From an uncultured delta proteobacterium (GTDB taxonomy: Bacteria; Desulfobacterota; Binatia; Binatales; Binataceae): 64,000 nt of DNA. Positions 1-17,538 of the stretch are shown piece by piece. A model generated the notes under the pieces. The model made no database searches. It saw only the letters and a program-made list of their open reading frames with translations, and was not told where the DNA came from. The position numbers were made by a program, and so were the translations under genes. The stretch covers positions 102,148-166,147 of the forward strand of contig CAWHNS010000020.1 of the NCBI GenBank assembly GCA_963830715.1, read 5' to 3'. Positions within the stretch are counted from its first letter, which is position 1. Each line of letters starts with the position of its first letter.

Positions 1-1341
1 GGATGCGCAGCGCACAATCACACAGATCGGGGTCGAGATCGGCGCTCTCGAACGCGAAGCGATCACCGGGAGCGATCACCATAAGCGAATCGGGGAGTTG
101 CGGTCGGCGTGCACCGCCGAAGAGGAACGTCTGGCCAAGCTCAAGGAGCAGTGGGACAAGGAACGCGAAATAATCGACCAAATCAAGCAGATCCGCGCGA
201 AACTCGAGGAGCAGCGCCGCGCCGCCACGGCCGGCGACGGCGCAAAGGCCGAGCCCTTGCGCGCCGAGCTCGGAAGCCTGAATGCGCCAAGCTGGCCGGG
301 ATCCAGGGCAGGACTCCGATGATGCAGGTCTGCGTCACCGGGCAGACCATCGCGGAGGTCATCTCCGGATGGACCGGGATACCGGTCGGCAAGATGCAGA
401 CCGATGAAATCAACGCCGTGCTGGCGCTCAAGGACAAGCTCGCGGAGCGAGTCGTCGGCCAGAGCTACGCTCTCGAGGCGATTAGCCAGCGGATTCGCAC
501 CGCCCGCGCCAACCTGACCGATCCGCGCCGGCCGATCGGGGTCTTCCTGCTGGTCGGCACCAGCGGTGTCGGCAAGACCGAAACCGCGCTCGCGCTTGCC
601 GATGCGCTCTACGGCGGCGAGCGCAATCTCGTCACTATCAACATGAGCGAATACCAGGAGGCGCACACGGTTTCGTCGCTCAAAGGCTCGCCTCCGGGCT
701 ACGTCGGTTACGGCGAAGGCGGAGTGCTGACGGAGGCCGTGCGGCGCAAGCCGTATTGCGTGGTCCTGCTCGACGAAGTCGAGAAAGCCCATCCCGATGT
801 GATGGAACTTTTCTACCAGGTGTTCGACAAGGGGATGCTCGAAGACGGCGAGGGCCGCGAAATCGACTTCAAGAATACGATCATCCTGCTCACCTCCAAC
901 GCCGGCTCCGACATCGTGATGAAGCTCTGCGCGGATCCCGCGACGCGCCCCGATCCCGAGGGTCTGGTCGAGGCGCTCAGGCCGGAGTTGGTGAAGATCT
1001 TCAAGCCCGCGCTGCTCGGCCGGATGGTAGTGGTTCCGTACTACCCGATCACCGATGAAGTGATGCGCGGGATCATCAAGCTGCAACTCCAGCGGATTGA
1101 GCGGCGGCTGTTGGAGAACCACGGCGCTAAATTCGATTATGACGAAAAACTCGTCAGCGAAATTGCCAATCGCTGCAAGGAGGTCGAAAGCGGCGCGCGC
1201 AACGTCGATCACATATTGACCCGCACGCTGCTTCCCGAAATGTCGAGCCAGTTCCTCGCCCGGATGGCGACCGGGCAGCCGGTCGAGCGTGCGCGGGTAA
1301 CCGTGGACGAGCGCGGCGCCTTCCGCTATGAGGTGAGTTGA
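1..1341 (+). CDS. clpV: ClpV/TssH type VI secretion AAA+ ATPase, C-terminal two-thirds (5' end outside window); apparent -1/+1 frameshift near 285-300 joining frame of ORF 98..322 to ORF 109..1341
   Basis: M-domain coiled coil (EEERLAKLKEQWDKEREIIDQIKQIRAKLEEQ) then D2 ATPase with ClpV-specific motifs VVGQSYALEAI, GTSGVGKTE, GSPPGYVGYGEGG, FYQVFDKGMLEDGEGREIDFKNT; directly upstream of vgrG. Confidence 0.85.
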
Positions 1342-1429
1342 CGCCAATTCTCCCCGCGCGCGGATCGTGGCGGGGAGTCCCTCGCGCGCCCTCGAGGGGG
1401 CGGATACAGAAGCAGGAGGGCGCCGCGTT

Positions 1430-3517
1430 ATGGCCAACGACCTAAACCCGATGGGGTTTTCCACTTCGGCTCCGGGTGGAGACTCCCTCTATCTGATCGA
1501 CCTTGCCGGGACCGAGGGATTGTCCCAGCTCTTCTCGTTCGATCTCCATCTGGTTTCCGAATCCGGCGTCGATACCGAATCATTCGTCGGCCAGAACGCG
1601 GTCGTGTCGATCACGATCGCGCAGGGCGAACGATACATCAACGGCTACATCAACCGGATCGTTGAACTCGATCCGGACAAGCGCTTCCGCCATTATTCGA
1701 TCCGGCTGGTCCCCTGGATGTGGTTCATGACGCGCCGCTCGAACAGCCGCATTTTCCAGAGCATGTCAACCACCGACATTCTGCAGAAGGTCTTCGACGG
1801 TTTCCCGAAGCCAAGCTCGGGCGCCTATAGCGTGGACGTGAGCGGTATCAAGGGGGACATTCCGACCCGCGCGTACTGCGTTCAATACCGCGAAACCGAT
1901 TTCAATTTCGTCTCACGCCTGATGGAGGACGAAGGAATTTTCTACTTCTTCGAACACGACAAGGAATCCCTGGTCCTGAAGCTGGCGGATGATCCGGAGG
2001 CGCACGAGCCCTGTCCGCTTGATTCGGATTTCGAATACCATCCGCAGACCGGCGACCTCCCGCTTCTGCAGGTGATCACGTCGTGGAAGATGGGGCGCGA
2101 TTTCCGCAGCGGAAAATACGCCCTGGCCAGCTCGCACTACCAGAAGCCGCAGGAGAGCTTTCCGGTCGAGGAACCGAGCTCGATCAGCGTCGCCAACAAC
2201 GATCAGTTCGAGCTCTATGACTTCCCCGGCGAGTACGCCAAGAGCTTCGTTGGCGCCGGCCCCGACGACGACCGATCGGCCTCGCAGAACGTAATGCCGC
2301 AGGGCTCGCGGCTGGCGAAGATCCGGATGCAGGAGGAGGAGTTTCAGTACATCGTCGTTGACGCCACCAGCACCTGTCCGACCGCCACCGCGGGATACCG
2401 GTTTACGCTCACGGAGCATCCTCACGACTCGCCGGACGATTGGAATGATCAGTACGTAATCCTTTCGGTGAATCATTCGGCCAGTCAGCCCGGACCCGGC
2501 AGCGAAGCCGGCGAGGCAATGAAATTCTCGAACACCTTCAACTGCATCCCGAACAAGAATGCGTTCCGGCCGCCGCGGGTGACCCGCAAACCCTTCGTTC
2601 AAGGGCCGCAGACGGCGCTGGTGGTTGGCGCCTCAGGGTCGGAGATCTTCAGCGACAAGTTCGGGCGCGTAAAAGTGCAGTTCTACTGGGATCGCGAAGG
2701 CCAGCTCGACGAGAAGAGGCTCGTGCTGGGTGCGGGTTGCGCAAATCTGGGCCGGCAAGCAATGGGGCGCGATCCAGATCCCGCGGGTCGGGCAGGAGGT
2801 GATAATCGACTTCCTGGAAGGCGATCCGGATCAGCCGATCATAACCGGACGCGTCTACAACGCCGAGCAACTGCCCCCCTACGATCTGCCCGATAATCAG
2901 ACGCGAAGTACGATCAAGAGCCGGAGCTCGAAGGGCGGCAGCGCGGACAACTACAACGAGCTCAGGTTCGAGGACAAGAAGGGCTCGGAGCAGCTCTTCG
3001 TTCACGCCGAAAAGGACATGGACCAGCGCGTCAAGAACGACTCCCGCGAGTGGATCGGCGCCAATCGCCATCTGATCGTGACGACCGATCAGAAGGAGTC
3101 GGTCGGCGGCGACAAGCACCTCAGCGTCACGGGTGATCATCTGGAAAAGATCGGCGGCGGCCACGACCTCCAGATCGCGGGTGACCAGAAAGCAAGCATC
3201 GGCGGCGGACAGTCCATCAATGTCGGCACTAACCGCCAGGAGCAGACCGGATCCAGCTGGGCGCACTCCGCCGGCCAGACCATCTACCTGAAGGGCGGGA
3301 TGACGGTGGTGATCGAAGCCGGGATGGAGTTGTCGCTCAAGGGGCCGGGCGGCTTCGTCGATATCGGCCCCGCCGGCGTCACGATCCAGGGCACGCTCGT
3401 ACAGATCAACAGCGGCGGCTCGGCCGGATCCGGGTCGGGCCCGAATCTCCAGAGCCGAAAGATCCCAAGGCGCCCGATCAGGCCGACGACGGCACCAAGG
3501 GCGGCAAGATGTCGTGA
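1430..3517 (+). CDS. vgrG: VgrG/TssI T6SS spike protein; reading frame switches near ~2710 and ~3440 (three ORF-track pieces)
   Basis: VgrG N-domain RYINGYINRIVELDPDKRFRHYSIRLVPWMWFMTRRSNSRIFQ; then SCWVRVAQIWAGKQWGAIQIPRVGQEVIIDFLEGDPDQPIITGRVYN in another frame; gp5-like repeats; C-terminus EPKDPKAPDQADDGTKGGKMS* in a third frame; AGGAGG RBS before ATG 1430. Confidence 0.85.
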
Positions 3518-3524
3518 GGAACCC

Positions 3525-4067
3525 ATGGGAGCACCAGCAGCGCGACTGACAGACATGCACACCTGCCCGATGGTGACCGGCATAGTGCCGCACGTCGGCG
3601 GCCCGATCGTCTCTCCCGGATGCCCGACTGTGTTGATCGGGATGATGCCCGCGGCGCGCGTCAGCGACATGTGCGTCTGCGTTGGGCCTCCTGACACGAT
3701 CATCCTCGGGGCCTTCACGGTCCTGATCGGAGGACAGCCTGCAGCGCGCATCGGAGACATGACCGCGCATGGCGGCGTGATCATCCTGGGCTGTCCCACC
3801 GTGCTGATCGGGACTTCCGGCGCAGGCGCCGCAGGCGGCGCATCGGGCGCCCCAGGCGCCGGCGCGGGCGGCGGGACGGACGATAGCGACGACGACGAAT
3901 CGGGAGGCTCGCAGGATGACGCCGCAGCCAGTTCCGACGACACCCCTGCCCCCAACGCCGACCAAGCCGCTAGCGCCGCGGGCCTCGAACAATCCGCCAT
4001 CTCAGGCGCTCCCCTGTGCGAGGAGTGCATAAAGGCACAGAAGACCGCCCCGCAAGGAAGCGGCTGA
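3525..4067 (+). CDS. PAAR-domain spike-tip protein with Gly/Ala-rich and acidic low-complexity C-terminal tail ending in CEEC motif
   Basis: Own GAGGA RBS + ATG 8 nt after vgrG stop; PAAR motifs ARLTDMHTCPMVTG, AARVSDMCVCVGPPDTI, AARIGDMTAHGGVI, LGCPTVLIG. Confidence 0.8.
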   Translation: MGAPAARLTDMHTCPMVTGIVPHVGGPIVSPGCPTVLIGMMPAARVSDMCVCVGPPDTIILGAFTVLIGGQPAARIGDMTAHGGVIILGCPTVLIGTSGAGAAGGASGAPGAGAGGGTDDSDDDESGGSQDDAAASSDDTPAPNADQAASAAGLEQSAISGAPLCEECIKAQKTAPQGSG

Positions 4068-7905: not shown

Positions 7906-8508
7906 CTACGGATTCGCGGGTGCGCCGTAGCCCAGGTTTACGACCTGGACGCGGCGATTCTTCTGGCGGCCCTCTTCGGACTCGTTGCTGGCGACAAAAT
8001 GCGACTTGCCGAAACCCTTCGGCATCATCCGTTGCTTCTCGATTCCCGTGCTCTGGCTAAGATAGTCAATGACGCTTTCCGCCCGTTCTTGTGAAAGCTT
8101 CAGATTATAGGCCGCGTCTCCGGTGGCGTCTGTGTATCCCTGCACCTCGAAGCAGCAGGGCTTCAACTCCGCCGAGTTCAGGGCCTGCCCGAGCGTATCG
8201 AGGGTCTTCAGCGCCTGCGGCGTCAACTTGGCGGAATTGACCTCGAACTCCACATCCAGCGCCGCAATATCGGCCTTGGGAGCGAGCTGGATTCCGCGCG
8301 CGGCCTGCTTCCTGAAGTGCGAGCATTCCGGCGGTTGAAGGCTGATCCCGCGCGGCTTGGGGCCCTTGGGGGTCAGCACGTGAACCAGGCTGTCAGAGGT
8401 CAGATTGCTTCCATTCAGGGCCTTGACCTTTTGCGCGAGCACGCCCCTTGCAAACATCACAACCACTGTTCCCGCTACCAGCAGGCAAAGGCAAAGCTTC
8501 CGATACAT
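7906..8508 (-). CDS. OmpA-family (OmpA_C-like) envelope protein
   Basis: FEVNSAKLTPQA...VQGYTDATGDAAYNLKLSQERAESVIDYL...EGRQKNRRVQVV; N-terminal signal peptide. Confidence 0.8.
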   Translation of the reverse strand: MYRKLCLCLLVAGTVVVMFARGVLAQKVKALNGSNLTSDSLVHVLTPKGPKPRGISLQPPECSHFRKQAARGIQLAPKADIAALDVEFEVNSAKLTPQALKTLDTLGQALNSAELKPCCFEVQGYTDATGDAAYNLKLSQERAESVIDYLSQSTGIEKQRMMPKGFGKSHFVASNESEEGRQKNRRVQVVNLGYGAPANP

Positions 8509-8550
8509 TGAAGTTCCTCCTTGCGTATCAGTCGATTATCAACCAGCTAC

Positions 8551-10425
8551 TCAAGACGTTCCAGCAGTCTTGCCGGGCGACTTCAGAACCTCCACGACCT
8601 TGGTGCCCTTGTCCAACGGCTTGGTGTGATCGATCACTTTGGCGAACGAGGCCTTCTCCTGTACCACCGTAATTTCCAGGGAGCCTATCTTCGTCGGCTT
8701 CTGGGCGATGACCACCCCGTTGACGGTGATCGGCTCCTCGACTATCGCGTTCATCCGGCCCCTACCGTTGCGCCCGCGTTGGAGCCCGCGTCGATAACCG
8801 CCTCGTCGCCATCGAGCGCGACGATATGGCCGCGCAGAGGATAATCCTGTTGCACCTGCTTCATGATGTCGGCGGCGGTCTTCTCCGCGACGCCCACTAA
8901 ACCCGCGGTCCCGCTTCCCTGCTCGGAAAGATTGACTTTCACTTCAGTGGTCTCGGTATCGATCATCTGCACGTTGAGCACGTACTGGTCCTTTCCGAGG
9001 AAGACCACGTTCCCGGTTCCGAACAGCCGCGCGATTTTGGTCTGCTGAAGCTTGAGGCGGGTCGCCGGGTCCGAGAGATCCGACATGCTCAGTTGGAGTT
9101 CCTTCAATATGCTGTTCAGCAGTTGACGATCGACAACGGTGACGCGCTTGGTACCCTGGAGCTGCTGGCTGATCTGCGAGACTAGGGCGGCATGCAAGCC
9201 GGCCAGCTCGGGCGACCCTCCGAGCGTGCTGAAATCGATGAACGCGACCACCAACGGCCGTGGCGCAAAGGGGTCGGACGGCCCCTCGTTGTCGAGCCCC
9301 TTTGAGCGTCCTTGCGGTCTGCGCCACGATGTCCTGCTGTGCCTGCGGATCGTTGCGGTATGCGAGGTCCGCGCTGACATCGTCGTTCAGCACGCGCGCC
9401 ACCTGGTTGGTCGGGTCGGTTTTGCTGGCGCTGGCGAACATCGATTGCGCCTTTTCGAGCGACCCGCTTTTCTGCAGATCCATCCCCTGCTGGATCTGGG
9501 ACGCGGCCTGGTTCGCCTGATCCGGCGACGGCGGTTGCAAAGCGCGCGCGACCGGAAAGTTGGTGCCTTCGGCGCGTACGTAAGGATGCTGCTTGTTGCC
9601 GGTCTTTTCCTCCACCTTATCGGTGGCATAGGTGAAAAGATTCAGGATATCGACGCTGCCATCTTTCCCCGCCGCCCCGCCGTTCAAGCCCTCCAGCAAT
9701 GCGTAAGTGAAGACCCCATGCCCCTTGGACTCGCCGGGCATCCTGTAACTGCCGTCCTCCCACGATTCCTCGTCGCCTTCGCTCGAACTCAGGATGTAAG
9801 CCTCAGGCATCTTGGGAGAGAGCTCGCTCACCAGGCTGACTCCACGCGCTCGATGCTGAGTAGTCATCAACTCTTCGAGCCCTCGAACCCGGAAGTTCAG
9901 CGCCGCGGCATGGCAGGTATCTACGATGACGACGGTCTTGCCGAGTTTCGCACTGACCCTCTGCACGGCGCCGGCGAAGTCGGAAACCGGAACTCCTTCC
10001 GTCGTCAGGTTGGACAGATCAGCCGGATATGGAACGTAATAGAAGGTGCCGTTGATGGTTACGCCATGACCCATCAGCGCGATTATCGCGGTGTCGTTGG
10101 GCGAGGCGGGGGCGAAGAACGACTCCATCTGGCTGAGGATCGCCTGCTTCGTCACCTGTTCGTTAACGAGTACATCGGTCTTGACGCTGTCGAAGACGCC
10201 CCTTCCTTCCCGCTGCAGGGCGCTCGCAAGGGTCACGGCGTCATTGTCGCCGAATTGCAGATCGATCGTGCTGTTGCGATAGTGGCTCATTCCGGCCGCG
10301 AATACCCAAAGCGTGCCCTTGGCCTGGGTGTCGCTATGCGCGTCGCGCGGCGACAAAATGGTTCCGCTGCCAATCGCGACGATCAGAAGCATCGAAAATA
10401 TGGAGGCGCGGCGAATGATTTTCAT
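8551..10425 (-). CDS. secreted caspase-domain (peptidase C14) protein fused to C-terminal CsgG-like domain; two apparent frameshifts (~9297 G4 run, ~8755)
   Basis: Signal peptide MKIIRRASIFSMLLIVAIGSG; caspase His/Cys dyad IIALMGHG ... VVIVDTCHAAALN; C-terminal LVVAFIDFSTLGGS...VTVVDRQLLNSILKELQLSMSDLSDP...KIARLFGTGNVVFLG (CsgG-like) continued in a third frame to 8551. Confidence 0.7.
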
Positions 10426-10627
10426 GCCGATGTCACTCGGGGGAACCGGGCTCCGATCGATTGGAGAACTTGGCCGCCACAATTAAACCGCGCACTCGCC
10501 GGAAAATCAATCTCGATTCCGGTGGCCGACATCTGATGCGTGGGCTCATTTCGCCTTGAATTGATGAGCGTTTGCGGCACATGATCTGCTCTTCGAGTAA
10601 CGCCATGGACTTCGAAGCGTGGTCGCG

Positions 10628-11421
10628 ATGAGCCCCCGGAAGGTGCTGCCCTATTGTCTCGGAAGCGCGCTTTGCGCTGCCGTCGCCCTGCTTGCGGCGG
10701 CTGCGCCACGTCCGGCCCAACCAGGACAGCCACAACGGTGGTCGTAGAAAAACCGGGCGTGGCAAAACCGAGCGCGCCAACACCGATTGCACCGGCCATG
10801 GTCACCGTCGCGGTGGCCGAGTTCGAGGGCGGCAGCGTACCGCCCGACAAGAAGACCGAGTTCTGGGGCAGGGCGCTCGCGAGCTTCATCGGCGCCGATC
10901 TCGGCGCGTCGCCAAGCGTGAAGTTGGTCGATCGCGAGCACCTGAACGAAATTCTTCGCGAACAGCGTCTCAGTATGGGCGATCTCTCCGATCCCGACAC
11001 CCGCCTGCGCGTTGGACGGATCGCGGGTGCGAAGTACTTCGTTTTCGGAACATACACTATCGTGGGCGGCACCGCGGCGTTGACCGCGCGCATGGATTCC
11101 GTCGAGACCGGCCAGATTATAGATTCCCGCAGCGTCAGCGGCCCGCCGGACGATATGCGGAAGCTATCGCGGCAACTTAGCGTAGCCTTTCTGGCCCCGA
11201 TCGATAGCATCCTCGCCGAGCAGGAGGCCCACGAAGCGCCGCCACAGGGCGCCCCAGTCGCGGCGGCCACGAGCTACTTCTCACAGGGATTGACGGATGA
11301 ACGGCGCGGAGATTACGAGAAGGCGATCGACATGTACACCAGGGCGCTCACTGTCTCCCCGCATTACCAGGAAGCGCAGGACCATCTGGCGAAAGTATCA
11401 GAGGCCGCAGCCCGCCAGTAG
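10628..11421 (+). CDS. CsgG-like lipoprotein with C-terminal TPR-like helix; signal peptide in a different frame from the domain (frameshift ~10700-10740)
   Basis: MSPRKVLPYCLGSALCAAVALLAAAAP then VTVAVAEFEGGS...VKLVDREHLNEILREQRLSMGDLSDPDTRLRVGRIAGAKYFVFGTYTIVGG (CsgG family pattern). Confidence 0.65.
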
Positions 11422-11441
11422 TTTCGTCTAGGGCGGTATCG

Positions 11442-12302
11442 ATGGGAAAATCCGCCAAGCTTTTGGTGGTCGCCTTGGCAATTGGATTGCTGATCGCGTC
11501 GAACGCGATCGCCCAACGCAGTTCCCCTAATCTGCCCGAAGGGAAGACGGTTCCCGCGCCAGATACCGAGCACCAACTCGCTTTGCTCGTCGCATCGTCG
11601 TTCGCGGGCGAGAGTGAGATGCGCGATGAGACCCACAATGACATTGTGGCGATCGGCGACGGCCTGCGGCAGCGCGGCTTCTCTCCGCAGGAAATCGCGG
11701 TCCTGGAAGGCGCGCCGCTCACTCGCCAATCGCTTACGGAATTCCTGCGCGCGGCCGGGCGCCGAGTCTCACACTGGCAAAGCGGAAAGGTGTTCTTCTA
11801 CTTCGCCGGTCATGGAAACTACGTCGGCAGGAGGGTCGGTCTGCAACTGGCGGACGATCCGGGTGACGAAGAGGGCAGGCCTTCCCGCTCTCTGATGTTC
11901 TGGGATGAAGCGCTGGCATCTCTTGACCTGCCGGCCGGAATCCAACTCTTCTTGCTCCCCGACTCGTGACACACCAACCTTCTCGCCGGCCGTGTGCCGG
12001 CGAACCTGGTTGCGATAGTCATCAAGGCTCCGCCAGGAGCCGAGTTCCTGTGCAAGGCCGGCAACGCATATTTCGACAACGGCCACGGCAAAGCCGTCGA
12101 ACGCGGCGTGATTTCGTACTACGCCGCTCAGTCGCTCCCATCGGCCACTACCGTTGAATCCTGGCTGGCCCGGATCGATGCGTTGATCGAGGTTGACTTT
12201 CGGCGGCATCGACTAGGCCGGCTGGAAAGACCCCCTCTGCAGGTGTTGGGAAATGGGAGAGCGAGCCTTCCCGGGATGGCGGTGTTGCCTGCGCAAGACT
12301 GA
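11442..12302 (+). CDS. secreted metacaspase-like peptidase C14 with in-frame TGA (11967-11969) at the catalytic cysteine position; candidate selenoprotein, or disrupted gene
   Basis: Signal peptide MGKSAKLLVVALAIGLLIASNAIA; HQLALLVASSF, KVFFYFAGHGN (catalytic His), DDEALASLDLPAGIQLFLLPDS-TGA-HTNLLAG matching metacaspase DSCHSG; in-frame continuation 111 codons to 12302. Confidence 0.6.
11976..12011 (+). promoter_or_regulatory. SECIS-like stem-loop 6-40 nt downstream of the in-frame UGA: lower stem aacc/ggtt, internal loop, 8-bp GC upper stem tcgccggc/gccggcga, apical loop CGUGU
   Basis: Perfect 8-bp inverted repeat read directly in sequence; apical loop contains GU; apical loop ~21 nt from UGA (within bacterial SECIS range). 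Confidence 0.45.
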
Positions 12303-12433
12303 CCATCGATCGAGCGATACCGGCGCGACGATCGGATTATAGCGCCGTTCGCTCGACTGCGCGGCGAGCAACTCGCACGCCGAGGATGCTCGAAATCCCG
12401 GCGTAGCAGGTTGCGTTTGCAAAGCGGTTTGAT

Positions 12434-15400
12434 TTGGGCTATCGATCTGCGGACTTTCGGGGGATGCCCGTGCCAAGGTTGGCTTCACAGCGTTTCAGAA
12501 AAAGATGTTCAGCGTTTCTACGCGACGCACATTTCGCGGTCGTGAGGAACGTGTGTCTTCTCGCGTTGGCGCTGCTATTCGCAGGCTGTCTGGATCCCAA
12601 CTGCCCTTCGTGCCCGCCGCCCAAGCGCGCAGCGACGCCAACTCCCAAACCTACGCCTAGACCCCCGACCCCGACGCCCACCCCGACGCCGACGCCAACC
12701 CCACCGCCTCCGCCGACTCCCACGCCTACGCCAACACCGCCTCCGACGCCCACACCGGCGCCATCGCCGTCACCTACGGCGACCGCACCACCTACGCCGA
12801 CTCCGACGCCAACCCCAACACCGCCTCCGACGCCCACACCAACGCCATCGCCGTCACCTACGGCGACCGCACCACCTACGCCGACTCCGACTCCAACACC
12901 GACGCCGACTCCCACGCCGACTCCGACTCCAACTCCGACTCCGACCCCAACTCCGACTCCGACCCCAACGCCGACGCCGACACCCACGCCTACTCCTACG
13001 CCAACGCCGACCCCTACGCCGACTCCAACACCGACGCCGACCCCGACCCCGACGCTAACCCCAACACCGACGCCCACGCCAACGCCGACTCCGACACCAA
13101 CGCCGCCGCCGCCTCCGACTCCAACCCCAACACCGACGGCGACCCAGGTTCCCATCTTCGAAGAGAGTTCGACGCCCACGCCGACCCCGACTCCTGCGCC
13201 CCCACCGATCTTCAACGTTTACGGTCAGGCGATGGGCGGATTTAATCCGATTTCCGGCTCTTCTGTGACGCTTCTCCAGGCCTCCGCCAGCCCAGGAGGC
13301 GGTGCGACTATCCTGGGCACGACGACCAGCGACTCCGGCGGTAACTTCTCGATTGTGCTGCAAGGCTTTCCACCGCAGGGTTCCATCCTGTACCTGCTGG
13401 CGAGCGGCGGTGATGCCGGCGGCGGGGCGAACACCGCGATCGAGCTGATGTCGATCATCGGTCAGGTCGGCAACACCGTGCCTACGACCGGTCCGATAAA
13501 TGCGACGATCAACGAGCTGACCACGGTCGCGTCGGCATACGTGGCCTCGAACTTCATCAGCGACGAGACCAATATCGCGGACAATTCTTTTGGCGCGCTG
13601 GCGGGCGCGGTCTCGGGAATCGGCAACCTCGTTAACGTTCAGACCGGCGGACTGGGGGGCACGATCACGAGGGGCAACAACGATCCGACCAAGCTGGTAA
13701 CGCTGGCGAACGCGCTGGCGAATTGCGTGCAGGCAACTGCAGGCTCAACTCCATGTACGAACCTGTTCAACGCCGCAGATTCGTCGTTCGATACGCTCGC
13801 TGCGATTATCAGCATCAACAAGTATCCCGCGAGCAGCGTCGGCGCGATTCTCGGTTTGGGGTCGAGCGGTCCGTATGCTGCGCCTCCGACGCCGACCCCT
13901 AGCCCGACGCCGACGCCCAGCGACTTGACGCTCGAGGTGAACTTCACTGCCGGTCAGCTGAATGATCCTTCCGGCATTGCGATCGACGGTTCGGACAACG
14001 TCTGGGTGCCGAACCGATTGGGGAACAGTGTGACGGAGTTGAATCCCTCCGGAACCCCGGCGCCCGGGAGTCCCTTTACCGTCGGCGGGCTGGGCCCTGA
14101 CGCCATTGCGATCGATGGCTCCGGCAATGCCTGGATTGCGAACCAAGGGTCGGCAGCGGATGATTTCCTAGCCAACAGTGTAACCGAGTTGAATTCCTTC
14201 GGCATGGCGGTCGGCAATTTCACCGGCGGCGGGCTGGGTGATCCTACAGGCATTGCGATCGACGGCTCCGGCAACGTTTGGGTGTCGAACTATTTTGGCC
14301 TGACTGTAGGCGTGAACGGCGGTGTGACGGAGTTGTTCGGCGGTGACACACCCACTGCTTGCCCGACTATACCCGTGAGCGGCGACACGGGATGTCCGGT
14401 CTCCGGGTCGCCCTTCATCCTCGGCGGGCTAGATGGGCCTTCGGGCATTGCGATCGACGGCTCCGGCAACGCCTGGGTGACGAACGGACAAATTCTGCCA
14501 AACGCCAACAGTGTGACCGAGTTGAATCCCTCCGGCGCCGCGCTCTCACCGGCAAACGGGTTCATGGGCGGCGGGCTGAGCGGTCCTTCTGCCGTCGCGA
14601 TCGACGGCTCCGGCAACGCCTGGGTGACGAACAGCTTCGCCAGCGCAAACAGTGTGACGGAGTTGAATCCCTCTGGCACGGCGGTCGGCAATTTCACCGG
14701 CGGCGGGCTGTCCGGTCCTGCGGGCATTGCAATCGATGGCGCCAACAACGTCTGGGTGGCGAACGCAGGCAGCGACACCGTGACGGAGTTGAATTCCTCA
14801 GGCATCGTTCTCACACCGGCAATCGACGCAAGCGGCGGTGTGGGGGGAGATCCTGATGCGATTGCGATCGACGGGGCGGGCAACGTCTGGGTCGCCATCT
14901 CGGGTAACGCCGTAACCGAGATTATCGGCGCAGGCGCGCCGACCAAGACGCCGTTGCAGGCGCGGCTCGCGTCGCTGCCGGCTGCCGGGCACTTCGTCTA
15001 CACCAACGACGACAACAGTCCCAATACCGTCTCGGGATTTTCAGTCGCATCCAACGGCGTACTGACGCTGCTTGCCGACTCGCCGTTTTCTACCGGCGGC
15101 AGCGGCAGCCCGTTCGGTTTCCACGGAAGTAATCTCATAGTCATCAACGGAACCGTACTGTTTGCCAGCAACAGCGGTGTACCCGCTGGCGGCGGCAGCG
15201 AAAGCATCAGCGTCTTCGCAATCAACCCCAGTAGCGGCGATCTCGTGCCGGTGGCGGGCTCGCCCTTTCCAGTCGGGGCTACGCATAGGGGTGACATCTC
15301 GCTGGCGGTAACTCCCAACGGCCAATTCCTGTTCGCCAGCGACCCTGGAACGTCCGAGATCTTCGCCTTCAGCGTCGGCTCCGGGGGACCATTGACGGCG

Positions 15401-16054
15401 GTGCCCGGCTCGCCTTTCCCGAGTGGCGGGCTAATCGCCGGTGGCACGGAGGTCACAGCGAACAGTCAGTTTTTGGCGGTAGCGCTGGCAGGTTCCAGCG
15501 CGATCGCCACTTTCGGCATCGGCAGCAACGGTGCACTCACGCCCGTGGCTGGCTCGCCCTTTTCTGCGGGAAACGAAGTGGCTGGAATCGACATCAACGC
15601 GACGAGTACTCTTCTGTTTGGAGGCGGCGCTGGCTCTGGCACTACCGTTGACGTCTTCAACCTGGCGTCCAACGGGGCGTTGGCCCCGACCGCCAGCTCA
15701 CCCTTCAGCTTCCCCAGCGTTGGAAGCAGCTCGAGCGTCGTGCGGCTCAGTCCCAGCCAGCAGCTCCTGTTCGTCAGTAACCAAGAGAGCAGCACAGTCA
15801 CGGATTTCACGGTAGACGGCAGCGGCAATTTGACGCTCGTAGCGGGAGCGCCCTTCGCGGTCCCCGGCATCTCGGTGCCCTCCGGAATGGACACAGACCC
15901 TGCTGGTTCGTTCCTGTACGTCGCTGCGTCGGTACCTAACGCCGTCAGCGTATTTTCGATCGCTGGCAATGGAACGCTAACGCCGCTTGGCTCGTTCGGG
16001 ACGGCCCAGGGCGCAACGCTGGCATCCTTAGCGGCATTTCCTGCGACGCGGTGA
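12434..16054 (+). CDS. large lipoprotein/surface protein: lipobox signal, ~190-aa Pro-Thr linker, NHL-repeat beta-propeller, lactonase-type 7-bladed beta-propeller (likely start GTG ~12542)
   Basis: [16 protein letters not shown] lipobox; (TP)n; repeated GIAIDGSGN(A/V)[13 protein letters not shown] units x7; then [25 protein letters not shown] / [12 protein letters not shown] / [14 protein letters not shown] lactonase-propeller repeats. Confidence 0.8.
12640..13200. repeat. hexanucleotide-type tandem repeat (ACN CCN)n encoding the Pro-Thr linker
   Basis: ccgacgccgactccgac... repeated >80 times; the antisense reads as (GV)n ORF 12439..13215. Confidence 0.9.
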
Positions 16055-16134
16055 TGGCAGCTCCCTTTTTGCATATGGGGCCCGAAGATGAAACTCGCAC
16101 GTCAGGTGTCGCCGCAAACGAGGGAGAGCGCGCA

Positions 16135-17538
16135 ATGAACTCGCATCGGCAAATCGCAGCGGTCGGAACTATCGCAGCCGCTCTTGTCGCGCTGGCGTTG
16201 TGCGGGTTTGGCCGGCTTGGGGCCGGACTGGCCTTTGCCGATCAGCCCAAAGGCGCCGCCGCGCCGGCAGGTTCGAGCAATGCCGAGCCGGGCGCGCTGG
16301 TTTCCAGCGGAATCAACGCCTACGATCAGGGCGACTACTCGGGGGCGATAAACGATCTCAGCGCGGCCCAGAAACTCTATCCCACGAACAGCTCGGTTTC
16401 GCTCTATCTGGGCCTGGCCTACCTCAAGCAGGACCGGCTCGCCGACGCGATCGCTGCCTGGCAGCGGTACCTCAAACTGAAGCCCTCCACCGAGGCCGAG
16501 CGGACGGGCGATCTTTCACAGAAAATTCCGCAATATCTGACCATCCTGCTGCGCGAGCACGACCATCAGCAGGCCGAGGAGGCGGTCGCGCACGAGCGCG
16601 AGATCGGTCCCGGCGACCCGCATACGGTCGCGATCACCTACTACCGCAATCTTGGCTCTCCGTTTCTGAACGTCCTTCGCAAGGGCTTGGCCGCGCTTCT
16701 GATCGATGACGTTTCCAAGGTGCCGGGTATCAAGGTGGTCGAGCGCGATCGGATGCAAGCCCTGCTCGACGAGATGAAGCTCGGTTCCAGCGGCTTGGCC
16801 AGCTCCACGACCGCCGCGCGGACAGGGCGTCTCCTGGGCGCAGGACGAGTGGCAACCGGCAGCTACGTGGACCCAACAGCGGCGGAACTCAATATCGACT
16901 CCGCGCTGATGGATACGTCCGCAGCGCATGGCGGGTCTACTCAGGCCGCGAACGGAAGGACCGCCCAGTTCTACGAGATCGAGAAGCAACTTGCCGCCAA
17001 GCTCTTGAAGGACCTTGGTCACGACGAGAGCACTCTGCCCGAAGGCGTCGTGCGGGAGATACAGAAACCGCAGACCGTTCGCTATTCGGCATTCGAGAGC
17101 TTCTCGAGAGGCCTCGACGCGAGGGATCGGCAAGACTATCCGGCGGCGCGCGGCTTTTTCCAGCAAGCGCTGACCTACGACCCGAACTTCAAGCTGGCCG
17201 GATTGGAGCTGCTCTATACTCCAACGGCGCCACTTGCAGTTCGTGCGATCCAGAGCAATGTCCGCTCCTCGGCGCCATCCGCGTCTGCGGCGGCGGCTGC
17301 CGCTGCGGCCGCGGCTGCGAGCGCTGGAGCGGGGGTATCGACTGCGACAGGCGGCGGATCGACCGGCGGCGGATCGACCGGCGGCGGATCGACCGGCGGG
17401 CCGACTGGCGGCGTGCCGACGGGTGGCGCGCCAGCGGTGCCGATAGGCGGGTTGACAAATGGCGCGACGATTCCCCCCGTGCCACCGCCATGCCCGCCAT
17501 TGATCTGTCCGGCATGCGTGGTAGCGGTGCACAGATGA
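16135..17538 (+). CDS. lipoprotein with TPR repeats flanking a CsgG-like domain; Ala-rich and GGST-repeat C-terminal low-complexity tail
   Basis: MNSHRQIAAVGTIAAALVALALCGFG; TPR-like YDQGDYSGAINDLSAAQKLYPTNSSVSLYLGLAYLKQDRLADAIAAWQRYL; TVAITYYRNLGSPFLNVLRKGLAALLIDDVSKVPGIKVVERDRMQALLDEMKLGSSG. Confidence 0.65.
   Translation: MNSHRQIAAVGTIAAALVALALCGFGRLGAGLAFADQPKGAAAPAGSSNAEPGALVSSGINAYDQGDYSGAINDLSAAQKLYPTNSSVSLYLGLAYLKQDRLADAIAAWQRYLKLKPSTEAERTGDLSQKIPQYLTILLREHDHQQAEEAVAHEREIGPGDPHTVAITYYRNLGSPFLNVLRKGLAALLIDDVSKVPGIKVVERDRMQALLDEMKLGSSGLASSTTAARTGRLLGAGRVATGSYVDPTAAELNIDSALMDTSAAHGGSTQAANGRTAQFYEIEKQLAAKLLKDLGHDESTLPEGVVREIQKPQTVRYSAFESFSRGLDARDRQDYPAARGFFQQALTYDPNFKLAGLELLYTPTAPLAVRAIQSNVRSSAPSASAAAAAAAAAAASAGAGVSTATGGGSTGGGSTGGGSTGGPTGGVPTGGAPAVPIGGLTNGATIPPVPPPCPPLICPACVVAVHR

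Follow-up and report, generated by a model that had tools for sequence, protein, structure and literature searches.

A likely selenoprotein gene with an in-frame UGA at the catalytic cysteine position of a caspase-like protein from an uncultured delta proteobacterium

A 64,000-nt stretch of a contig from an uncultured delta proteobacterium (CAWHNS010000020.1, positions 102,148 to 166,147; hereafter the window, in whose numbering positions are given unless another contig is named) carries a gene for a caspase-like protein that is crossed in frame by a UGA codon and is, in our assessment, highly likely to be a genuine selenoprotein gene. The gene occupies 11442-12302 on the forward strand, as do all of its parts described below, and forms a single frame that opens with ATG and comprises 175 sense codons, a TGA (11967-11969, codon 176), 110 further sense codons and a terminator TGA (12300-12302). 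Read in this way it is a complete predicted selenoprotein gene of 286 codons, one of them a UGA for selenocysteine (Sec176). A preliminary description of the locus, made from the sequence by inspection, had placed the TGA in frame with the frame open to 12302, and re-reading gave the same result. The peptide before the UGA ends in FLLPDS and the peptide after it begins with HTNLLAGRVP, and database gene callers split the gene into open reading frames (ORFs) of 175 and 102 aa.

The TGA is not an assembly artefact, as all 2048 bases of window positions 10741-12788, the TGA among them, recur without a mismatch in an independent Logan assembly of run ERR12036785. An error of sequencing or assembly, a pseudogene, or a reassigned code with a sense UGA could be suspected from the origin of the contig in a metagenome-assembled genome (MAG) and from the frameshifts carried by two related long-read contigs (L062 and L059); given the identical independent assembly, the same TGA in about 45 independent loci and a ratio of nonsynonymous to synonymous substitution rates (dN/dS) far below 1 on both sides of it, we regard such an explanation as scarcely credible. 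TGA also terminates 18 of the 30 Pfam-supported genes in the window, where it is the commonest ordinary stop, and it terminates this gene too. On these counts, and with true terminators that vary within the family (TAG in most members, TAA or TGA in others), the genetic code is standard and the recoding site-specific.

With cysteine written at the stop, the protein matches Pfam PF00656 (Peptidase_C14) with E = 2.4e-8 and 34.4 bits (cut-off 21.4), and 7 of 10 family members match the same model. A phmmer search of the PDB with the single read-through protein gave no match; a family profile of ten read-through sequences (alignment A3) searched against the PDB matched Arabidopsis metacaspase 4 (AtMC4; 6w8s, E = 3.3e-4), Geobacter GSU0716 (3bij) and metacaspase 9. 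The alignment pairs sfsGHGt with HYSGHGT and llPDS-C-Htn with IISDSCHSG, and residue counting within it places His124 (F-A-G-H-G, 11811-11813) at His86 and the UGA at Cys139 of AtMC4, the two residues of that enzyme's catalytic dyad (PMC7206013). The UGA column likewise falls on the cysteine of the DSCHSG motif in GSU0716, which bears out the earlier proposal that it corresponds to the catalytic cysteine. Alignments and homologous loci together identify the UGA at 11967-11969 as the predicted Sec codon, U176, at the nucleophile position of D-S-U-H-T-N. Of the two dyad motifs originally read from the sequence, KVFFYFAGHG is present, and the residues that follow the stop are H-T-N, not H-S-G. 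His124 is invariant in the homologues that carry the TGA (Sec forms), and Asp67 (11640-11642), in an N-D motif that aligns with V-N-D of AtMC4, is invariant both in these and in the homologues with cysteine (Cys forms). The alignment of N66-D67 hints at an acidic S1 pocket (metacaspases and orthocaspases have Arg/Lys specificity at P1); from metacaspase structures we take Asp67 to be a possible S1-pocket acid.

Relatives were sought among 5.8 billion proteins, and all 30 that were returned (42-50% identity) terminate exactly at LLPDS. Homologous DNA came from 56 soil-metagenome loci, three contigs of 15-18 kb and one Planctomycetota MAG. The preliminary description had looked to orthologues for TGA or TGC at this codon and for a conserved frame beyond it: in all of the about 45 loci that cover the site the codon after LLPDS is TGA, never TAA, TAG, TGC or TGT, and the downstream ORF is conserved, the frame continuing for 97-136 codons (mostly 111-112) and starting HTNLLAGRVPAN. 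Median pairwise dN/dS is 0.14 before the TGA and 0.166 after it (225 pairs), the latter value indicating that the downstream part is translated and under purifying selection. Variation in the eight codons directly 3' of the TGA (HTNLLAGR) is nearly all synonymous, and the first possible restart codon, GTG at 11994, is GTA or GTC in three relatives (L043, L059 and L008); conservation of HTNLLAGR at the protein level and this loss of the GTG argue against a separately initiated second gene.

Scanning of genome contigs for the family with a peptide profile gave no match, and a DNA-pattern scan of genome contigs found one MAG only. This third TGA-form lineage (L061; CAWHGR010000004.1, 7866-7937, minus strand, Planctomycetota MAG MFD02134.bin.2.236) has the hairpin loop CGUGU, described below, and the presence of the TGA form in a phylum other than that of the Binatota-like window would point to an old origin or horizontal spread. 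Two copies are aberrant through frameshifts (L059, 1888-1960; L062, 10001-11020) and are either pseudogenes or the product of long-read indel errors; a neighbouring ACR_tran gene is likewise fragmented in L062, a 119-kb contig that was left out owing to its frameshifts. In another locus (L020, around 809-1220) about 25 extra residues have been inserted into the C-terminal half.

Cysteine counterparts of the protein were found by searching 1.84 billion representative proteins with its C-terminal 110 residues (HMMER; 98 matches). Most of the matches are short (59-147 aa, usually near 100), start just after the UGA and represent split Sec forms. Ten inspected matches are continuous proteins of 239-326 aa (P0032, P0051, P0054, P0057, P0058, P0086, P0122, P0123, P0128 and P0140); these and two fragments that span the site read D-C-C-[HYFL]-x-N-L-L, as against D-S-U-H-T-N-L-L in the Sec forms, and one further match, P0068, spans the site with neither motif. 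The correlation is strict, with D-S/T-U in the TGA forms and a vicinal D-C-C in the Cys forms, and Cys204 (12051-12053), 28 residues downstream of the UGA, is invariant in both and is a candidate resolving or partner thiol. The S/T-U versus C-C pattern and the invariant Cys204 are a hint that the active site may be redox-controlled or may itself carry out redox chemistry.

The closest Cys form, P0032, has 46% identity to the window protein, and its cluster contains a protein named Candidatus Binatus sp. The fold was modelled on P0032 in place of the window protein (AlphaFold 2; mean predicted local distance difference test score 83.8, core above 90), and the top Foldseek matches of the model are MALT1 paracaspase, metacaspase 9 (AtMC9), a Candida metacaspase, legumain and caspases (E from 3e-9 to about 1e-7). 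The C-terminal half contributes strands and helices to the caspase fold in this model, according to which the complete fold would need both halves of the gene; a product ending at residue 175 would then be without the nucleophile and part of the sheet. The C-terminal, p10-like half (11970-12299) would be made only upon decoding of the UGA, a view consistent with the dN/dS values and the P0032 model.

These observations bear on an alternative in which the TGA is a real stop and two polypeptides are made: one of 175 aa, p20-like and lacking the nucleophile, the other p10-like, of about 102 aa and started at GTG 11994, as in a split or pseudo-caspase. Such an arrangement would suit the two ORFs annotated by gene callers in every database, the GTG nine codons after the TGA, and the natural function of caspases as p20/p10 pairs. 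The stop is nevertheless always TGA in a family whose true terminators vary, the stretch between TGA and GTG is conserved as protein with synonymous variation only, and the GTG gives way to non-start codons in three relatives; moreover, continuous Cys homologues exist, the break would delete exactly the catalytic residue, and the fold requires both halves. We therefore consider a split gene very improbable, and the reading of the locus as one selenoprotein gene is preferred.

A hairpin resembling the bacterial selenocysteine insertion sequence (bSECIS) lies at 11975-12012, starting 6 nt after the UGA, and is seen in both the fold and the homologue alignment. The lower stem, CAACC/GGUUG, pairs 11975-11979 with 12008-12012, the upper stem pairs 11983-11990 with 11996-12003, and the apical loop is CGUGU (11991-11995) with G at loop position 2 and a spacing of 21 nt from the UGA. 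Folding bore out the hairpin as first described, with its start 6 nt after the UGA, lower stem, internal loop, apical loop and spacing within the bSECIS range; the upper stem, then called a perfect 8-bp GC stem, does have 8 bp, of which seven are G-C and one is U-A. A 66-nt segment has a minimum free energy of -27.1 kcal/mol (z = -3.54, 0 of 200 shuffles as good). Published bSECIS constraints are a loop of 3-9 nt, an upper stem of 4-16 bp, a minimum free energy of at most -7.5 kcal/mol, a G within the first two loop positions and a distance of 16-37 nt from the UGA (PMC13188914). In our own implementation of these constraints, the window hairpin (-21.4 kcal/mol) agrees with the published model, and 28 of 29 distinct sequences aligned from the TGA (alignment A2) conform to it, typically with the loop CG[G/U]GU, a 21-nt spacing and a 6-8 bp stem.

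Within this alignment the upper-stem cells are paired in 90% of cases and the lower stem is weakly conserved (76% paired), and RNAalifold recovers a 6-bp core of the upper stem. Columns 21/33 and 24/30 covary from C-G through U-G to U-A, with both sides of these pairs at third codon positions of Ala, Pro, Gly and Val codons. When the 3' partners are slid by 1-3 columns, pairing falls from 85% to 11-58%, and third-position entropy is 0.57 bits in stem codons versus 1.03 bits in comparable codons elsewhere in the gene. In a soil clade with the sequence GCCGGCCGGGUGCCGGCC (A2 columns 19-36), two fold registers shifted by 3 nt are available, with the loop CGGGU or GUG; the compensatory changes favour the CGGGU register, and the window and L061 can form that register alone. 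The hairpin matches no Rfam family, and Rfam in E-value mode returned noise alone. An intrinsic terminator after a real stop was considered and rejected, the hairpin being GC-rich and without a T tract; it is followed by AACCTGGTTGCG, and no terminator-like site was found at 10400-12600. As a compact and well-defined bSECIS, the element would be usable for recoding studies.

UGA followed by C is a weak termination context, and this context is present in 28 of the 29 sequences. Downstream hairpins can promote readthrough, which brings in a second alternative, that Trp, Cys or Arg enters at the UGA through a near-cognate tRNA and without selenium, aided by the UGA-C context and the hairpin. The codon is, however, that of the nucleophile, where Cys or Sec alone would keep function and where relatives have Cys, and low-efficiency insertion of Trp would yield a dead enzyme. 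The geometry also matches a SelB-type SECIS, with G at loop position 2 and 21 nt from the UGA, and the keeping of TGA, not TGY, across lineages about 50% diverged and in at least two phyla (Binatota-like and Planctomycetota) is the classical Sec signature. Readthrough without selenium is thus an unlikely explanation in our view, and decoding of the UGA as Sec is favoured.

Several points weigh against a selenoprotein and a selenol peptidase at this locus. Neither a SelA, SelB or SelD domain (Pfam, about 40 ORFs scanned) nor a tRNA-Sec (ARAGORN and Rfam) turned up within the 64 kb of the window, the fetched loci likewise contained none of these, and no literature on Sec use in Binatota was found; that no Sec machinery was seen in the window or the fetched loci would fit a split gene and selenium-free readthrough alike. 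The bSECIS model is loose, 73 of 250 random TGA triplets of the GC-rich window (29%; 63% GC) passing it and 2 of 250 matching the quality of this hairpin, and the hairpin alone is suggestive, not decisive, because of this chance rate. Stem conservation is partly forced by the conserved peptide LAGRVPA, and compensatory change is confined to two stem pairs. The canonical His, invariant in the Sec forms, gives way to C, R, N, S or G in 7 of the 10 Cys forms, which suggests that the wider family may not rely on a classical His-Cys dyad. To our knowledge nearly all known selenoproteins are redox enzymes, and Sec as an acyl-transfer nucleophile would be unusual. As a separate observation, Cys forms in which the GHG His is replaced often have another His about 3 residues later (alignment A4).

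We favour the selenoprotein reading, as stated at the outset, because the TGA is invariant where true stops vary, both parts of the frame are under purifying selection, the hairpin is conserved, conforms to the bSECIS model and covaries, the UGA falls in the column of Cys139 of AtMC4, and Cys homologues exist. The central proposal of the preliminary description, Sec at the metacaspase nucleophile with a SECIS hairpin behind it, was supported by every comparison that could be made, and from these sequence comparisons we infer Sec insertion at UGA176.

The gene very probably belongs to a selenoprotein family not described before, which would also be the first to have a caspase (cysteine-peptidase) fold. 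No caspase, peptidase or protease is listed among the 119 prokaryotic selenoprotein families and subfamilies in Table 1 of a May 2026 review, or as a selenoprotein in BSepDB and deep-Sep. None of the models in NCBIfam release 20 represents the family, the one match (caspase_w_EACC1) being sub-threshold, and full-text literature searches for a selenoprotein of the metacaspase, orthocaspase or caspase-domain (Peptidase_C14) kind found nothing, in line with the earlier remark that no Sec-caspase had been described.

Compared with the orthocaspases and metacaspases of family C14, clan CD (AtMC4, 6w8s; GSU0716, 3bij), the protein passes the same Pfam C14 model and shares the G-H-G histidine and D-S-[nucleophile]-H in the columns of His86 and Cys139 and the N-D motif, and its Cys-form relative P0032 models as a caspase-hemoglobinase fold. 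It differs in that its nucleophile codon is UGA, that it is small with a predicted signal peptide and that Pfam covers the p20 half only; its Cys-form relatives differ in their vicinal C-C, often without the canonical His, and 28 residues beyond the nucleophile position both forms have an additional invariant Cys. With bacterial selenoprotein genes that have an intragenic SECIS (the fdhF-type, SelB-dependent system that bSECISearch models), it shares an in-frame UGA followed by a stem-loop, the 16-37 nt spacing and the existence of Cys homologues (PMC13188914), whereas the family is absent from the 119-family catalogue, BSepDB and deep-Sep and no NCBIfam selenoprotein model matches it. What is new is the application of standard Sec recoding to the nucleophile of a clan-CD peptidase fold.

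Glutamine amidotransferases work through an acyl-enzyme intermediate and not by redox chemistry. A predicted Sec-containing member, related to the C-terminal part of CTP synthase and reported with deep-Sep in 2025, likewise has Sec in place of the Cys nucleophile (PMC12013277). It differs in its unrelated fold, cytoplasmic location, occurrence in Desulfobacterota and action on an amide group, not a peptide bond, and is the nearest conceptual precedent. The selenosubtilisin of Wu and Hilvert, a semisynthetic selenol protease, is said to behave less like a protease than like a peroxidase and acyl transferase, and to favour aminolysis. It is alike in having a selenol nucleophile in a protease active site and differs in being man-made and of the serine-protease fold, and its behaviour cautions against taking the natural protein for a simple hydrolase. 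Selenium in acyl transfer has, as far as we know, been approached so far mainly with semisynthetic selenosubtilisin, and a family in which most detected members have a predicted Sec at a peptidase nucleophile would provide a natural test of selenium in acyl-transfer catalysis. With this family, aerobic soil lineages (Binatota-like and Planctomycetota MAGs) join the candidate users of Sec, and such genes are systematically split by annotation pipelines into two 'hypothetical proteins'.

The mechanism that we propose follows the established bacterial pathway (PMC13188914). The gene would encode one exported polypeptide of about 286 residues with a caspase/metacaspase (clan CD, C14-like) fold, and the hairpin 6 nt after the UGA would act as a bacterial SECIS, its loop CGUGU (CGGGU in relatives) 21 nt away. 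SelB-GTP-Sec-tRNA(Sec) would bind the apical hairpin of the translating mRNA and deliver Sec in competition with release factor 2 (RF2), after which the ribosome would go on to translate the p10-like half and terminate at 12300-12302. In the mature protein His124 and Sec176 would form the dyad, with the conserved Asp67 and Cys204 nearby.

His124, Sec176 and Asp67 reproduce the active-site columns of metacaspases, and for this reason an orthocaspase-like peptidase is the default reading. The most likely function would be peptidase or transpeptidase activity of the orthocaspase type, with a selenol as nucleophile; for an active peptidase as such we put the chances at about even. A selenol resists irreversible over-oxidation, and selenium may confer this resistance outside the cytoplasm; a peroxide-tolerant protease, a transpeptidase or a redox enzyme is possible. 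We entertain, tentatively and with some doubt, the further idea that this is a natural, active selenol enzyme on a cysteine-peptidase scaffold, the first with selenol acyl transfer on peptide bonds, in which C-C was swapped for S-U for one of two advantages of selenium. If so, the swap may have been made because selenium resists irreversible oxidation in an oxidising cell envelope, or because it shifts the acyl intermediate from hydrolysis to aminolysis; in the latter case the protein would be a transpeptidase or ligase that depends on Sec, with parallels in the legumain ligases of clan CD and in the glycosylphosphatidylinositol (GPI) transamidase.

The N-terminus carries a probable signal peptide of the secretory (Sec) type at 11442-11513 (MGKSAKLLVVALAIGLLIASNAIA, then QR), in which a charged n-region, a hydrophobic core and an A-x-A site (A-I-A) were recognised by eye. 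Homologues likewise bear N-terminal hydrophobic or twin-arginine leaders. From the leader, the mature protein is probably periplasmic or located at the cell envelope. By eye, several Cys forms (among P0051, P0057, P0058 and P0123) have leaders resembling those of twin-arginine translocation (SRRAFGV, TRRNWLL), and the Sec forms examined carry secretory-type, not twin-arginine, leaders.

A TyrRS encoded in the window has 75-78% identity to proteins of Candidatus Binatus and of Binataceae, which marks the host as a Binatota-like MAG; the contig measures 487 kb. The predicted selenoprotein gene sits in a cluster of cell-envelope genes (7906-17538). Pfam identifies an OmpA gene (7906-8508, reverse strand), a Cys-type C14 protein with a signal peptide (8944-10425, reverse strand) and a CsgG-like gene with tetratricopeptide repeats (TPR) at 10654-11421 on the forward strand, which ends 20 nt before the start codon and is a possible operon partner. 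Downstream are a gene for an NHL/beta-propeller protein of 1206 aa (12434-16054) and a TPR and CsgG-like gene (16051-17538). Soil-clade homologues have different surroundings, without this cluster and with alpha/beta-hydrolase genes behind the gene.

The preliminary description had paired the neighbouring C14 gene, then placed at 8551-10425, with this one as a Cys/Sec paralogue pair. That pairing was dropped: the neighbour runs on the minus strand from 10425 to 8944 and has no significant similarity to this protein (BLASTP E = 1.2), and the real Cys counterparts are the D-C-C proteins found elsewhere. After about 400 residues the same C14 gene (8551-10482, minus strand) enters an arginine-rich, low-complexity region, and it overlaps other minus-strand ORFs at 8751-9380 and 8551-8754; a frameshift or assembly indel in its TPR tail could account for this and would explain why the earlier coordinates reached 8551. 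Farther upstream, at 109-4067, the window contains genes resembling those of type VI secretion systems or phage baseplates, among them a ClpV/ClpB-type AAA ATPase, VgrG (Phage_GPD) and a gp5-C/PAAR fusion.

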